Assembly: GCF_013315695.1 (NCBI RefSeq)
Contig: NZ_CP054353.1
DNA from: Escherichia coli
Lineage (GTDB): Bacteria; Pseudomonadota; Gammaproteobacteria; Enterobacterales; Enterobacteriaceae
Length of the DNA: 64,000 bases
Reading direction: 5' to 3' (one strand)
Translations under genes and position numbers: made by a program
Part shown: one piece after another, positions 26,766-32,765 of the stretch
How positions within the stretch are numbered: the stretch's first letter is position 1
How the letters are laid out: each line of letters begins with the position of its first letter
The notes under the pieces: model-generated
What the model was told of the DNA's origin: nothing
Databases searched by the model: none
The model's input: the letters and a program-made list of their open reading frames with translations, nothing else

Positions 26766-28061
26766 TTACAGCGGATAATGCGCGAAGTACACGGCTTGCT
26801 GGTCATTAATTTTCTTCTCTTGCGCAAACCCTTCTTTAACAATTGTCCGTAAATCAGCTCGAGCCGTATTATCAGAGACGCCCAGGCTCGCGCTAATTTC
26901 AGCAACTGTGTACTCTTTCCCCGGATTGGCGAGCATCACATTCAGGAGCGTTACCTGGCGCGGATTCAGGCGTTTAAGCACACCAGAGCTAAACAGCACA
27001 CTATCGAGTTTTGCGCTTCGTTGTGTAATTTCATCGATATGCTGCTGCCAGTTTTGCAGAGCACGTTTAATGACACCCGCCTGATATTCAAGGAAATAAG
27101 TCAGATCCATACCATCTGATTCAGTGTACTGGTAGCTGGCGGCATATTTGACCGGTGCAGCATGAAGCAAACGGCTGATGGAAATATATTTAAAGACATC
27201 GTAGCCCGATTTCAGCATATACCAGTAAAACAGCGCCCGACTGGTGCGCCCGTTGCCATCCCGAAACGGATGTTCATGGGCCAGCATAAAATGCAGAATG
27301 CAGGCACGGACCAACGGATGAATATACCCTTCATGGCTGTTTAACCACTGGCAAACTTTTTCCAGCCGTTCCGGTAACAATGCCGCAGCGGGCGGTTGAT
27401 GCACTATATTGCCATCATAGTCGGCGATCACAACATCATCTGTTTCACGAAATTCTCCCGGACGATATTTCGCGTCATTGATTCCACCCATACCAATGGC
27501 ATGTAACTGGCGAATAAGCGCAGGTGTCAGCGGTTCTGCGAGTAAGTGCGGAATTTCCGCCATCAGCCGGGCATTTCCCGCAATCATATGCTCGTCTTCA
27601 GTGCGTGGCGACCGCCCTGTTTCCAGCATTTTTCTCGCCACCAGCGTTGTAGTATTCGCACCTTCCAGCTGGGAGCTGGTGATCGGCTCTTCCAGGCGTA
27701 ACTGGCTTAACTCGGCTCCGGCCCCGCGTAACCGTTCAGTCTGATCTTTCAGCGCCAGCGCGGTAGCACGTTTGTCGACAAGCTCGCACGCTTCTGCAAT
27801 CACCGGGGTAATGTTGAATCCGGCCTGTTCACCCGCTTCATTGCAATAATTAATTCGTTGGATCGCCGCGTTGCGCGCCAGACGGGTAAGCGTCCACGCC
27901 ACATCGACGTTTTCTCCTTTTTTGATGCGGTACTGCAACTCATCAAAAGGCAGATAACGTCCTTTTTCATCGGTAACCCGGTTAAAGCGCAGGTGGGCCA
28001 GGAGTTCCTCACCCGATAAGTGTGATAAAGGAATAAGTCCGGGAGGTGATTTGATAGCCAT
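26766..28061 (-). CDS. Fic (AMPylase-type) family protein with N-terminal inhibitory motif and C-terminal winged-helix domain
   Basis: 431 aa; Fic active-site motif [15 protein letters not shown]-terminal SSQLEG matching the (S/T)xxxE(G/N) inhibitory-helix pattern; C-terminal HTH-like segment ([28 protein letters not shown]). Confidence 0.8.
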
Positions 28062-28064
28062 GTG

Positions 28065-28145
28065 CTTATCTCAAAAAAGCGCAATATTGAGATAGTGTAT
28101 AGCAGGAAAGAGAAACTATCTCAAAAAAAGCAAGTTTTGAGATAG
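28065..28145. promoter_or_regulatory. two ~30-bp palindromes (TATCTCAAAAAA…TTGAGATAG) immediately upstream of the Fic gene; candidate operator pair
   Basis: cttatctcaaaaaagcgcaatattgagatag at 28065-28095 and ctatctcaaaaaaagcaagttttgagatag at 28116-28145. Confidence 0.45.
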
Positions 28146-28190
28146 TTGAAAAAGCGGCTGACAACTCGCCAGCCGTTGTGGGAATGATGA

Positions 28191-29342
28191 TTACATTGCG
28201 GCGCGATAAATCGCCACAATTTCTTCGTGAGTTGCCTGGATCGGGTTAGTAAAGCCACAGGCATCTTTCAGGGCATTAGTCGCCAGTACCGCGAAATCTT
28301 CTTCTTTCACGTTCAGGTCACGCAGGCCTGCCGGGATATCCACTTTCTTCGCCAGTTCACGGATGGCGTTAATGCAGGCTTCAGCACCTTCCGCGTCGTT
28401 TTTACCAGTCACGTTCACGCCCATTGCAGCGGCACAGTCACGCAGACGTGCTGCAGCGACTTTGCTATTGAATACCTGAACGTGTGGCAGCAGAACAGCA
28501 TTACATACACCGTGTGGCAGGTTGTAGAAACCGCCCAGCTGGTGCGCCATCGCATGAACATAACCCAGAGAAGCATTATTGAACGCCATACCGGCGAGGA
28601 ACTGGGCATAAGCCATTGCTTCACGCGCTTTCGCATTACTGCCATCTTCAACGGCTAACGGCAGGTTTTCGGCAATCATGGTCACGGCTTTCAGTGCGCA
28701 AGCGTCAGTGATCGGCGTGGCGGCAATAGAAACATACGCTTCGATAGCGTGCGTTAAGGCATCCATACCCGTTGCGGCGGTCAGTGACTTCGGCATACCG
28801 ACCATCAGAGATGAGTCATTGACAGAAAGCAACGGAGTTACATGTTTATCAACAATCGCCATTTTGATATGACGCGCTTCGTCAGTGATGATGCAGAAAC
28901 GGGTCATTTCAGAGGCCGTACCCGCCGTGGTATTGATGGCGATCATCGGCAGCTGCGGTTTTGCAGAGCGGTCAACGCCTTCGTAATCGCGAATATCGCC
29001 GCCATTGGCTGCCACCAGCGCAATACCTTTTGCGCAGTCGTGCGGAGAACCACCGCCTAAGGAGATCACGCTATCGCAATTATTTTCTTTAAGTAATTTC
29101 AAACCTGCGGCGACGTTTTCCGTGGTGGGGTTAGGTTGGGTGCCATCATAAATAACGCTAAAAATATTGCGTTCTTCCAGTGCTTTTTGCACATCACCCG
29201 CCATACCCAATTTCGTTAACATATTGTCGGTGACAATTAAGGTACGGGTAAATCCATAATCTGCCATCATATTCATTGCATCATTCAATGAATCAGCACC
29301 AATAACATTCACGGAAGGAATAAAAAAGGTTGAAGCTGCCAT
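28191..29342 (-). CDS. yiaY: iron-containing alcohol dehydrogenase YiaY
   Basis: 383-aa Fe-ADH family protein. Confidence 0.85.
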
Positions 29343-29532
29343 AACACACTCCTGAAAGTGTAAAAAAGGGCGGGCAGCTTACTGAGAATTTTCATTTGAA
29401 AATATGATCAACATTACCGTTTATTAAAATATTTTTAATAAAAAGCACGTTACATTCATCAAATAACGTGCCTTCTTAACATTAATAAGAAATTTTGTAT
29501 TAATTCATATTTATTATGAATTAATCATTTCC

Positions 29533-31377
29533 TTATTTTTCCGGAAATAATAATGCGTCGCGTAATAAATGATCATTTCCACGACGACGCGTAAAGCCAA
29601 TGCGGTCAAAATATTCCAGAATCTGAATTGCCAGCTTTCGGCCTACGCCTAAGCGATCGCGGAAATCCGCCGCGCAGGTTGAACCACACTCCTGATCGAG
29701 ATCGCGGATCATATTAGCAAACTCGACAATCCGATCGTTACGGTAATAACGATCTTTAACGATCGCGGTAATTATCCCCTGCTGCGCCGCCTGGCGTAGA
29801 GTCAGGCGCATTGCCTGCTCGTCGGTTCCCGTCTCTTTTGCCAGGTCTCGCACCCACCACGGTTCGTCACCAAACAGTGGCTCTGCTTTTTGCCAGATGG
29901 CCTGCTGCTCTTCGCTGAAGCCCGCTTTGTGATCCGGCAGATGCAGCCAGCCGTGATGACTGAGGATGTCGCCGCTTTCGCGCATCTTTTCAATCAGCAA
30001 CAGTACCAGCGCTTCATCTTCCATTGGCAACGCCATACGTCGCAGACGTTCGCGCCCAGGACCAGGTTCATCGCGATGTTGCTCATGATAAGTCGCTAAT
30101 GTGTCGAGAATTTTCCGCTGCCAGCGGGCGGCAACCGGCGCATTCAACAAGCTATAACCAGCCTGAATATAGCCAGGCTGTTGCAGCAGTTCGCGCATCC
30201 CTTCGCCGTTGAGCTGGCGCGCCCAGGCGAAATCAGCAAGGTTAACCGCGCCGCGTTCCAGATGAACAGATAACGCATCGGCATCGCTCTGCGCCCGTGC
30301 AAGAGACGCCAGCCATTGCAGATATTCCGGCTTACGCTTACCGCGACGCGGCGGGTTAAGCATCACCACACGCGCCCCCGCCAGCGTGTTGCGGGCCGAG
30401 ATATCGCGCAGCACTATGCGATCGTTATCCGCCAGCCACAGCGGCGTGTCGAACACCAGCTCGGCAAGGTTATCTTCCAGCAGCGAAACGCGTCCCGTAA
30501 CGTGGCTGGCGGCGTGGTGAATATGCAGCGGCTGCCACTGGGTCAGCGGTGTATGGGTTTGAAGCTCAACTATCACCCGCGTAAACGGCTCCGGCGGCGC
30601 ATCGGCAAGCAACCAGTCGCCACGGTTAATCTGTTCTTTTTCCGCATCACCCGCGATGTTAAGCGCAATACGCTGCCCGGCATGAGCTGCATCTGTTGGC
30701 TGATTTTGCGCATGTAGCGCACGCACGCGCATCGGTTTATTTACACCAGTCAGCCAGATTGAATCGCCTACCTTCACTTCCCCGCTTAACGCCGTACCGG
30801 TGACGACCAGCCCGGCACCTTTTACGGTAAATGCGCGGTCGATCGCGAGGCGGAAACTATGTTGGCTGGCGTGTTCGCGTTCTGGTAACTGAAGCAGATG
30901 CTCGCGCAGGGCATCAATTCCCCGACCTTCGGTTGCTGCGGTGATAAACAGTTTTGCCTCAGCAAAACCGTATTCCCGCAGCACCTCCTTTACCTGGCGT
31001 TCAACCTCATCAACACGCGCTTCGTCCACGCGATCGGCTTTGGTCAGCGCCACTGTCAGCATCGGATTACCGGTCAGCTGCAAAATCGCCAGATGCTCAC
31101 GGGTCTGTGCCATCACGCCGTCATCGCACGCCACCACCAACAGCGCGTGATCGATACCACCAACGCCCGCCAGCATGTTGGAAAGAAACTTTTCATGACC
31201 GGGTACGTCGATAAAACCAGGCACGCGACCATCCGGCTGCGGCCAGTAGGCATAGCCGAGATCGATGGTCATGCCGCGCTTTTTTTCTTCCGGCAGACGG
31301 TCGGCATTTACGCCAGTAATCGCCTGCAATAAGGTTGTTTTGCCGTGGTCAACGTGTCCGGCAGTCGCAATAATCAT
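29533..31377 (-). CDS. selB: selenocysteine-specific elongation factor SelB
   Basis: 614 aa; N-terminal GTPase motifs (GHVDHGKT) and C-terminal winged-helix repeats. Confidence 0.9.
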
Positions 31378-32765
31378 TTCAACAACATCTCCAAAAACCG
31401 TTGCTCATCTTCAAGGCAGCGTAAATCCAGCCACAATCGTCCGTCATAAATACGACCAATCACCGGCACTGGCAATTCACGCCAGCGGGCGGCTAATGAC
31501 TCAAGGTGGCTACCGCGTCCATCATGGGGTGTAAACGTTAATGCCGCGCTCGGCAGGCGATCAACCGGCAGCGAACCACTGCCAATCTGCGAAAGACATG
31601 GCATAACCTGTACCGCAAACTCCGCGCCGTAATGTGCGGCAAGGGGAGCCTGTAAACGTTGTGCCTGGATTTGAATGACCTCTGCGCTGCGGGTAAGCAG
31701 GCGCAGGGTCGGTAATTTTTCACTCAGCGCCTCAGGGTGTAAATAAAGACGCAGCGTGGCTTCCAGCGCCGCGAGGGTCATTTTATCCGCGCGTAATGCA
31801 CGCTTCAGTGGATGGCTTTGCAGGCGGGCGATCATCTCTTTTTTACCAACAATAATTCCTGCCTGCGGCCCGCCTAACAACTTGTCGCCGGAGAAGCTCA
31901 CCAGACTGACGCCCGCCGCAATCAACTCCTGCGGCATTGGCTCTTTCGGCAAACCGTACTGGCTAAGATCGACCAGCGAGCCACTGCCTAAATCAGTCAC
32001 TACGGGGACATCCAGCTCTTTGCCGAGCGCCACCAGTTCCGCTTCATCTATCGCTTTGGTGAATCCCTGAATGCTGTAGTTACTGGTATGTACTTTCATC
32101 AACAGCGCGGTATTTTCATTCACCGCCTGACGATAATCATTAGCGTGCGTGCGGTTGGTGGTCCCTACTTCGTGTAGTGTGCAGCCTGCCTGACGCATAA
32201 CATCAGGAATACGAAACGCGCCGCCAATCTCCACCAGTTCGCCGCGAGAAACCACCACCTCTTTCCCGCTGGCAGTGGCCGCCAACATCAATAACACCGC
32301 CGCCGCATTGTTATTAACGATACAGGCATCTTCCGCCCCCGTAATACGGCACAGCAGCTGCGCCAGCGCACGATCGCGATGTCCGCGTCCGGCGTCGTCC
32401 AGATCGTACTCGAGGGTCACTGGCGAACGCATAGCCTGCGCAACGGCTTCCACCGCGGCTTCTGCCTGTAAAGCTCGCCCAAGATTGGTATGCAGCACGG
32501 TTCCCGTCAGGTTGATCACCGGACGCAGCGCGCTCTGCGCCTCCTTCGTCAGTCGGGCATCGACTTCTTGCGCCCAGTTTTCACACCATGCGGGCAGCGT
32601 CTGGCTATCACGAATCACTTCTCGCGCTTCGTCAAGCATCTGACGCAGCAATTCCACCACGCGGGTGTGACCATAAGTATCACGCAAAGAAAGGAAGGAG
32701 CTATCGCGCAATAAGCGATCAATAGCCGGAAGTTGACTATAGAGGGAACGCGTTTCGGTTGTCAT
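31374..32765 (-). CDS. selA: L-seryl-tRNA(Sec) selenium transferase SelA
   Basis: 463-aa PLP enzyme; 4-bp overlap with selB. Confidence 0.9.

Follow-up and report, generated by a model that had tools for sequence, protein, structure and literature searches.

The window, by which we mean the whole 64-kb stretch of DNA that was analyzed, carries three genes on its minus strand that frame the region of interest.

31374 to 32765, minus strand: selA
29533 to 31377, minus strand: selB, with its TAA stop codon at 29533 to 29535 (UAA, read 29535 to 29533)
28191 to 29342, minus strand: yiaY, with its ATG start codon at 29340 to 29342

The names selB and yiaY had already been given in the initial annotation and are correct. 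The source matched Escherichia coli: a 701-bp query around the inverted repeat described below (the dyad) matched 5,425 of 5,426 complete genomes. The product of yiaY is an iron-type alcohol dehydrogenase, and the gene has been called cryptic; its physiological role and its control are essentially unstudied. The spacer between selB and yiaY is 190 bp long and 74% A+T. Read along the minus strand, it runs from the selB stop codon through 7 nt to the dyad, followed by ACAAAA, a 20-nt linker, a GC hairpin, UUUUU, an AT-rich stretch, the block TTGATCATATTTT, and finally the yiaY leader and ATG. Two mechanically called open reading frames of 28 and 31 amino acids, which overlap the gene ends in the spacer, found no support.

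Several other features were observed around these genes. A gene for a Fic-family protein (26766 to 28061, minus strand) sits between yiaY and aldB; it is absent from this place in K-12, where the gap measures 164 bp. Between the Fic gene and yiaY lies a 13-bp perfect inverted repeat, AACTATCTCAAAA / TTTTGAGATAGTT (28114 to 28147), with a terminator-like appearance. In E. coli ETEC1701 (locus L007), an IS1 element directly follows selB, the C-terminus of selB is altered, and yiaY is missing together with its neighbors back to yiaN; the spacer and yiaY are thus dispensable.

The initial annotation had described a 9-bp inverted repeat, taattcata-tttat-tatgaatta, at 29501 to 29524. The repeat is present at 29501 to 29523, the noted end being one base too long, and its perfect symmetry reaches beyond 9 bp: ATTAATTCATA (29499 to 29509) and TATGAATTAAT (29515 to 29525), 11 nt each with 5 nt between them, are 100% complementary. 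The dyad begins 8 nt past the selB stop codon, with 7 nt in between, and can be divided as follows, with mean column identities calculated over 16 spacers from Escherichia, Citrobacter, and Pseudocitrobacter.

29499 to 29525: the dyad, an 11 + 5 + 11 perfect palindrome in the window allele, with a conserved core of 9 + 9 + 9
29517 to 29525: selB-side arm, TGAATTAAT on the plus strand, mean column identity 0.951 (16 spacers)
29508 to 29516: variable 9-bp center, mean column identity 0.646, differing in nearly every Citrobacter species
29499 to 29507: yiaY-side arm, ATTAATTCA on the plus strand, identity 0.958, overlapping the plus-strand word TGTATTAATT (29496 to 29505)
29493 to 29498, minus strand: ACAAAA tail after the dyad, identity 0.917

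The conserved core, ATTAATTCA-N9-TGAATTAAT, reads identically on either strand, and it is the outer 2 bp on each side of the 9-bp center that extend the palindrome to 11-bp arms in the window allele.

Shuffle tests indicate that the repeat is real and not an artifact of base composition. A perfect arm of at least 11 bp with a loop of 3 to 20 nt appeared in 14 of 2,000 dinucleotide shuffles of the spacer, and the whole 64-kb window holds four such repeats versus 0.17 expected from composition-preserving block shuffles. The remaining repeats of that class are a REP pair (2290 to 2362) and the terminator-like repeat at 28114 to 28147. When up to 3 mismatches were allowed, the 18-base dyad pattern occurred a single time in the window (0.03 expected). 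The symmetry of the dyad is statistically unusual, as that of an operator would be. It is possible, if quite improbable in our view, that the dyad has no present function, an 11-bp palindrome having arisen by chance in the AT-rich spacer of one E. coli haplotype while the likeness across species reflects shared ancestry or mutational bias. Palindromes do arise easily in AT-rich DNA, and two further AT palindromes (I4 and I5) lie within the same spacer; against this stands the rarity with which local shuffles reach the repeat.

Neither the window nor the fetched loci contain a second full copy of the dyad, and no regulon is therefore apparent. In 15 fetched loci, ATTAATACAAAA occupies the orthologous position, and it occurs once more at L091, the locus of a copy at 40.6 kb in the window. 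That copy, a 17-mer on the plus strand (40626 to 40642; ATTAATACAAAAATTCT), matches the dyad-adjoining ATTAATACAAAATTTCT at 16 of 17 positions, with 0 expected from whole-window shuffles. It represents a half-site only, without a dyad partner, and lies ~105 bp upstream of a DUF3251/SadB-like lipoprotein gene (ATG at 40749) in an accessory island that follows yibL and is absent from K-12. It could be a second site for the factor that would bind the dyad, or a chance match. An IS1 element is inserted early in this lipoprotein gene, from about position 40817 of the window onward, with a junction common to 3 of 5,426 genomes.

Membership of the dyad in the REP/BIME class was ruled out by its single copy (in the window and loci) and its AT-rich sequence, the REP consensus being multicopy and G+C-rich. 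The window does contain a REP-like, G+C-rich pair at 2290 to 2362, in which a perfect inverted repeat of 11 bp lies next to one of 13 bp. In the window-type haplotype, a perfect AT palindrome, TTTATTAAAA-TAT-TTTTAATAAA (29420 to 29442), directly follows the U-tract of the GC hairpin, in a poorly conserved stretch upstream of the GATC-containing block.

The minus-strand RNA of the spacer forms two hairpins, of which the dyad is one and the GC hairpin the other.

29440 to 29472, minus strand: predicted selAB intrinsic terminator, stem GCACGUUA (29465 to 29472) / UAACGUGC (29445 to 29452), then UUUUU (29440 to 29444)

The GC hairpin has a folding energy of −16.4 kcal/mol (z = −5.5) in the window allele and lies about 27 to 40 nt downstream of the dyad on the minus strand. 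In an alignment of 13 distinct versions from Escherichia, Citrobacter, Intestinirhabdus, and Kluyvera, 99% of cells were paired, double changes occurred in six of eight pairs, and none of 500 shuffles was as good. The hairpin is equally stable in both E. coli haplotypes (−16.4 and −16.8 kcal/mol) despite two compensatory differences between them. Taken together with its U-tract, it appears to be the true intrinsic terminator of selAB and an element separate from the dyad. A consensus terminator scan of the spacer reported no site, the real terminator included; the scan was limited to loops of 8 nt, and it misses the GC hairpin because its loop (9 to 12 nt) is longer than that limit.

The presence of this second hairpin bears directly on the earlier suggestion that the dyad might be part of a bidirectional terminator. 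The dyad resembles Rho-independent terminators in that it is a hairpin-forming inverted repeat just past the selB stop codon. However, its stem contains one G-C pair among 11 and is in effect AU-only, the minus strand goes on as ACAAAAUUUC with no U-run (the continuation after the stem being ACAAAAUUUCUUAUU), and compensatory substitutions are lacking, the one double change being no better than shuffles. The adjacent GC hairpin, in contrast, has all three properties, and this covarying hairpin with its downstream UUUUU accounts for termination. The consensus scan also reports nothing at the dyad, though the same scan misses the real terminator. With one G-C pair, no U-run, and no covariation, the terminator reading fails, and we find it scarcely credible that the dyad is part of an intrinsic selAB terminator, bidirectional or not.

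A SelB scan, which returned 80 loci across the Enterobacteriaceae, was used to follow the spacer in other species. yiaY follows selB, with a spacer of about 185 to 189 bp, in Escherichia species, most Citrobacter species, Intestinirhabdus, and Kluyvera; the spacer measures 151 to 167 bp in Pseudocitrobacter and Enterobacter soli/asburiae and 326 bp in Citrobacter amalonaticus. Most Enterobacter, Klebsiella, Raoultella, Leclercia, Kosakonia, and others have a selB neighbor other than yiaY. The motif ATTAATTCA-N9-TGAATTAAT-ACAAAA is present in window-type E. coli, the cryptic Escherichia lineages, Escherichia albertii (with one arm change), all species of the Citrobacter freundii complex, and Pseudocitrobacter, and it is degenerate in C. 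amalonaticus and Citrobacter sedlakii. It is absent after selB in taxa without yiaY at this place (Enterobacter, Klebsiella, Raoultella, Leclercia, and others) and also, despite selB-yiaY adjacency, from Kluyvera, Enterobacter soli/asburiae, and Intestinirhabdus.

Where the dyad occurs, its arms are kept while most of the surrounding sequence drifts. Mean column identity is 0.63 to 0.68 in the linkers, 0.90 and 0.93 in the terminator stems, 0.96 in the U-tract, and 0.918 in the GATCATATTTT block. By comparison with these values, the dyad arms are as constrained as elements of clear function. The half-sites and their spacing are thus retained across species while the spacer sequence varies, a pattern expected of an operator. 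Both the conserved spacing and the identity of the arms (0.95 to 0.96, versus 0.63 to 0.68 in flanking noncoding columns of the same sequences) speak against a dyad that has no function.

E. coli has two strongly divergent haplotypes of the spacer, whose flanks are almost the same and which differ over roughly 110 bp (about 29395 to 29520; loci L001 and L003 to L006). The window-type haplotype, counted with a haplotype-specific 55-nt probe, was found in 1,336 of 5,426 genomes, 1,144 of them identical. The remaining genomes, K-12, HS, and O157 included, read ATTAATTaA(g/t)ttttaaaaTaAATTAAT, in which the symmetric dyad positions 8 and 20 are both changed. About 75% of E. coli genomes, including K-12, therefore carry a decayed dyad, and about 25% carry an intact one; since most genomes have lost it, the dyad is dispensable. 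The few variants inside the window type (a small sample) spare the dyad for the most part; one affects an arm and another the center. Judging from the distribution of the motif across Escherichia, Citrobacter, and Pseudocitrobacter, the window-type allele is ancestral and the K-12 type derived. The haplotypes also form a mosaic, the window type being nearer to Citrobacter in the dyad and the K-12 type nearer in the terminator stem. For the possibility that the dyad lacks function, two aspects of this variation are favorable: the extension from 9 to 11 bp is allele specific, and in most E. coli genomes the dyad is degenerate, to no known effect.

Located between the selB stop codon and the covarying terminator, the dyad is probably transcribed, and the question arises of whether it acts as RNA or as DNA. 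In the window allele, the RNA stem is longer than the palindrome itself.

29484 to 29537, minus strand: extended, allele-specific RNA hairpin, in which the dyad is surrounded by an outer stem, AAUAAGGAA/UUUCUUAUU, that also takes in the UAA stop codon of selB

The main rival to an operator is accordingly a hairpin in the selAB 3′ untranslated region, an AU-rich stem-loop that would serve mRNA 3′-end stability, processing, or ribosome release or would form the body of a 3′-UTR-derived small RNA ending at the terminator. The position of the dyad upstream of the terminator on the coding strand suits such a role. The dyad hairpin is also the minimum-free-energy structure in every allele folded except that of C. 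amalonaticus, and it is strong in the window allele, where the extended hairpin reaches −15.2 kcal/mol (z = −5.5). In an alignment of 18 sequences, the 9-bp stem stays paired in seven cells through G-U wobbles, which are possible only in the minus-strand RNA, and one pair has changed on both sides (C-G to U-A, in C. amalonaticus).

The same alignment, however, provided no covariation in the dyad stem beyond that of shuffles: 93.8% of cells were paired versus 92.8% in shuffled alignments, a value reached by 63 of 500 shuffles. In contrast to the adjacent terminator, which covaries in the same sequences, the arms are therefore kept as sequence and not through compensation. Folding energy beyond that expected from composition is not a property of all carriers, as the window allele alone has a z score of −5.5. 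The K-12 dyad hairpin (−5.4 kcal/mol, z = −0.4) is no better than shuffled sequence, and z scores range from −0.4 to −2.3 in the other E. coli alleles (−1.6 in HS) and from −0.5 to −2.1 in Citrobacter, E. albertii, and Pseudocitrobacter. The Citrobacter stems fold at −6.0 to −7.8 kcal/mol (z = −1.1 to −1.6), and those of E. albertii, C. amalonaticus, and Pseudocitrobacter fold at −4.1 to −5.7 kcal/mol; stability in K-12, HS, and Citrobacter is thus indistinguishable from that of shuffles. As DNA, the window allele could extrude a hairpin with a computed energy of −7.1 kcal/mol.

Other evidence also weighs against the 3′-UTR hairpin. An Rfam scan of 29000 to 30000 with E values up to 10 returned noise only, the best hit being an unrelated snoRNA model (E = 0.23), and the literature searched reports no sRNA or 3′-UTR function here. 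The hairpin has been lost in about three-quarters of E. coli genomes, and selB loci without yiaY lack the dyad, which argues that selB does not require it. On balance, we consider a 3′-UTR function unlikely, though it is the alternative that deserves the most attention.

The initial annotation had placed the repeat in the yiaY promoter. This is imprecise: the dyad does lie in the spacer between the selB stop and the yiaY start, but upstream of the terminator and inside the selAB 3′ untranslated region. The part of the spacer that resembles a promoter element is found closer to yiaY.

29399 to 29411, minus strand: conserved block TTGATCATATTTT, which contains the Dam site GATC, identity 0.918

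This block is present in every genus in which yiaY follows selB, including the dyad-less Kluyvera, Enterobacter, and Intestinirhabdus, and its distance to the yiaY ATG was exactly 67 nt in all 14 sequences measured. Such conservation of sequence and distance suggests that TTGATCATATTTT is probably a core-promoter or activator element of yiaY. A scan of the spacer, TTGATCATATTTT included, for the sigma-70 promoter consensus found nothing that scores. The dyad lies 103 bp from the GATCATATTTT block and 170 bp from the yiaY ATG, with the terminator in between. The distance from the dyad center to the GATC block is 101 to 103 bp in all Escherichia and Citrobacter despite drift in the linkers. It is 92 bp in Pseudocitrobacter, approximately one helical turn shorter; helical phasing rests on this one informative genus.

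Literature searches found no mapped yiaY promoter, regulator, sRNA, or 3′ end for the spacer, and selB and yiaY are absent from the RpoD genomic-SELEX promoter list. A promoter list is the only place where yiaYp4 and yiaYp6 are named, and we take them to be computational predictions. In K-12, yiaY was not transcribed under the conditions of a 2025 preprint (10.1101/2025.01.06.631547). The silence of yiaY in K-12 (in this one data set), together with the absence of a sigma-70-like promoter, fits a gene that depends on a factor for its expression.

Two further observations concern this region. The 3′ end of selB contains a cluster of GATC sites (29655, 29694, 29700, 29707, 29733, 29751, and 29761), the densest in the window, which lies 130 to 250 bp from the dyad. 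The same cluster of seven GATC sites in K-12 was reported to show Dam-dependent occupancy by RNA polymerase and protein, with no known binding protein (10.1101/2025.01.06.631547). In the yiaY leader, AAGCUGCC pairs with GGCAGCUU (29333 to 29340 and 29373 to 29380, minus-strand RNA), with an inner ACACU/AGUGU stem. The resulting fold contains both the Shine-Dalgarno sequence and the AUG (−17.8 kcal/mol, z = −2.4). Since neither Citrobacter nor Kluyvera retains it, the fold may represent an E. coli-specific occlusion of translation.

The reading that we tentatively favor, at a little short of an even chance, is that a sequence-specific DNA-binding protein, probably a dimer, recognizes the dyad as an operator-like site, one that was already present in the ancestor of the Escherichia-Citrobacter group. 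In this model, the protein would contact two 9-bp half-sites (ATTAATTCA / TGAATTAAT), separated by a constant 9 bp and located some 100 bp upstream of the putative yiaY core promoter, and it would adjust yiaY transcription, with repression or silencing as the most likely mode. The window strain has kept the ancestral form intact, with a chance improvement to a perfect 11-bp palindrome. Some three-quarters of E. coli genomes, K-12 among them, have a derived allele that lacks both of the symmetric bases C8 and G20. The analysis shows the repeat itself, its nonrandomness, its position, its conservation pattern, and its allele frequencies; that a protein binds there, that it acts on yiaY, and in which direction are inferences.

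Several lines of evidence point toward an operator. First, the arms and their spacing are conserved while the center is variable, covariation is absent, and the RNA hairpin is weak outside the window allele. Second, the identity of the arms is level with that of the terminator and the promoter block, while the center and the linkers drift. Third, the dyad is seen only where yiaY follows selB. Fourth, the distance between the dyad and the GATC block is kept, or is reduced by about one helical turn in Pseudocitrobacter. Fifth, the silence of yiaY in K-12 (one data set) and the lack of a scoring sigma-70-like promoter would suit a gene under the control of a factor. The initial annotation had offered a transcription-factor site controlling yiaY as the other of its two possibilities; this is compatible with the cross-species pattern and is favored over the terminator.

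The dyad shares with the palindromic operators of dimeric bacterial transcription factors its symmetry, its half-sites at fixed spacing across genera, its freely drifting center, and its location in noncoding DNA upstream of a poorly expressed gene whose promoter is unlike the sigma-70 consensus. Unlike them, it is a single-copy, candidate site about 100 to 120 bp from the presumed promoter and on the far side of a terminator, and its half-site centers are 18 bp apart, yet its ATTAAT hexamers are 21 bp apart. A center at this distance from the promoter, with a terminator hairpin between them, would be unusual for a simple operator. Kluyvera, Enterobacter soli/asburiae, and Intestinirhabdus, which have selB next to yiaY and no dyad, also count against an operator, as do the single copy of the dyad and its loss from most E. 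coli genomes. In addition, conservation of the arms at the sequence level would be equally expected of an RNA stem that is recognized sequence specifically.

If the dyad is an operator, one candidate for the protein is MngR (FarR), a repressor of the HutC/GntR family that controls mngAB. The FarR/MngR consensus is given in PMC4494728, with reference to Quail et al. 1994, as direct repeats of TGTATTAWTT. On the plus strand, TGTATTAATT at 29496 to 29505 matches this consensus at 10 of 10 positions and is the sole match in the window; a second plus-strand copy 21 bp away, TGAATTAATC, matches at 8 of 10 positions (9 of 10 in Citrobacter), and both strands contain the related words TGAATTAAT. In K-12, the genuine mngR-mngA operator region contains TGTATTATT, TGAATTTAT, and cGTATTAAT. 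The word TGWATTWWT, which was defined post hoc, occurs three times at the dyad and twice in the 108-bp mngR-mngA spacer of K-12, the expectation for the latter being 0.09. At a synthetic promoter, repression by MngR from −103 is about as effective as from +1 (PMC11806353).

The match to MngR nevertheless came from a comparison with many motifs, and a 10-mer match in 74% A+T DNA is weak after such multiplicity. The architecture also differs, with tandem, contiguous TGTATT units at mngA versus a spaced inverted or 21-bp direct arrangement here, and MngR is reported to control only mngA and mngB (PMC12842492). Named clusters of MngR orthologues came from Citrobacter koseri, C. amalonaticus/Salmonella, C. 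sedlakii, Pseudocitrobacter, and Enterobacter, and none came from the C. freundii complex, which has kept the dyad best; as this absence was judged from named clusters only, it leans against MngR without being proof. Conversely, C. sedlakii and C. amalonaticus have MngR but degenerate dyads. Considering the motif multiplicity, the differing architecture, the mngAB-only regulon, and the species distribution, MngR is an unsupported lead, and we regard it as a very improbable special case of an operator.

Other DNA-binding proteins were also considered. YiaU/LpsR, a LysR-type regulator encoded nearby, was rejected, as yiaY is not among the targets reported for it from ChIP-exo and RNA-seq (PMC9068703). 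Motifs for ArgR, Fur, IHF, Fis, Lrp, Zur, NikR, and ArcA and the LysR T-N11-A motif, compared by eye, did not fit in spacing or orientation. The high-affinity nucleation motif of H-NS is tCG(A/T)T(A/T)AATT, as Lang and colleagues reportedly described it in 2007. In comparison with this motif, TGATTAATT at the selB-side arm matches at 8 of 9 positions, and the AT-rich context and a neighboring gene that is silent in K-12 would also fit H-NS. H-NS sites, however, are not usually precise dyads conserved across genera, and the Citrobacter flank, CAATTAATT, matches less well. The H-NS-like match at the flank of the arm illustrates the ease with which AT-rich words match known motifs.

A more specific proposal, which seems to us possible but doubtful, is that the dyad is the operator of a candidate regulator of the cryptic yiaY gene for which E. 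coli is naturally polymorphic, intact in ~25% of genomes and decayed in ~75%, including K-12. The stakes are modest; this would be an ordinary kind of cis-element that leaves current understanding unchallenged. If the proposal is true, the regulation of yiaY would differ between lineages, which would help explain why work on K-12 has yielded so little knowledge of yiaY control. Because K-12 carries a decayed allele of a conserved cis-element, regulon maps based on K-12 would miss the dyad. A real operator would in turn offer a 27-bp bait, which B2-type E. coli and the C. freundii complex carry in intact form and with which the regulator of yiaY and its inducing condition may be found.
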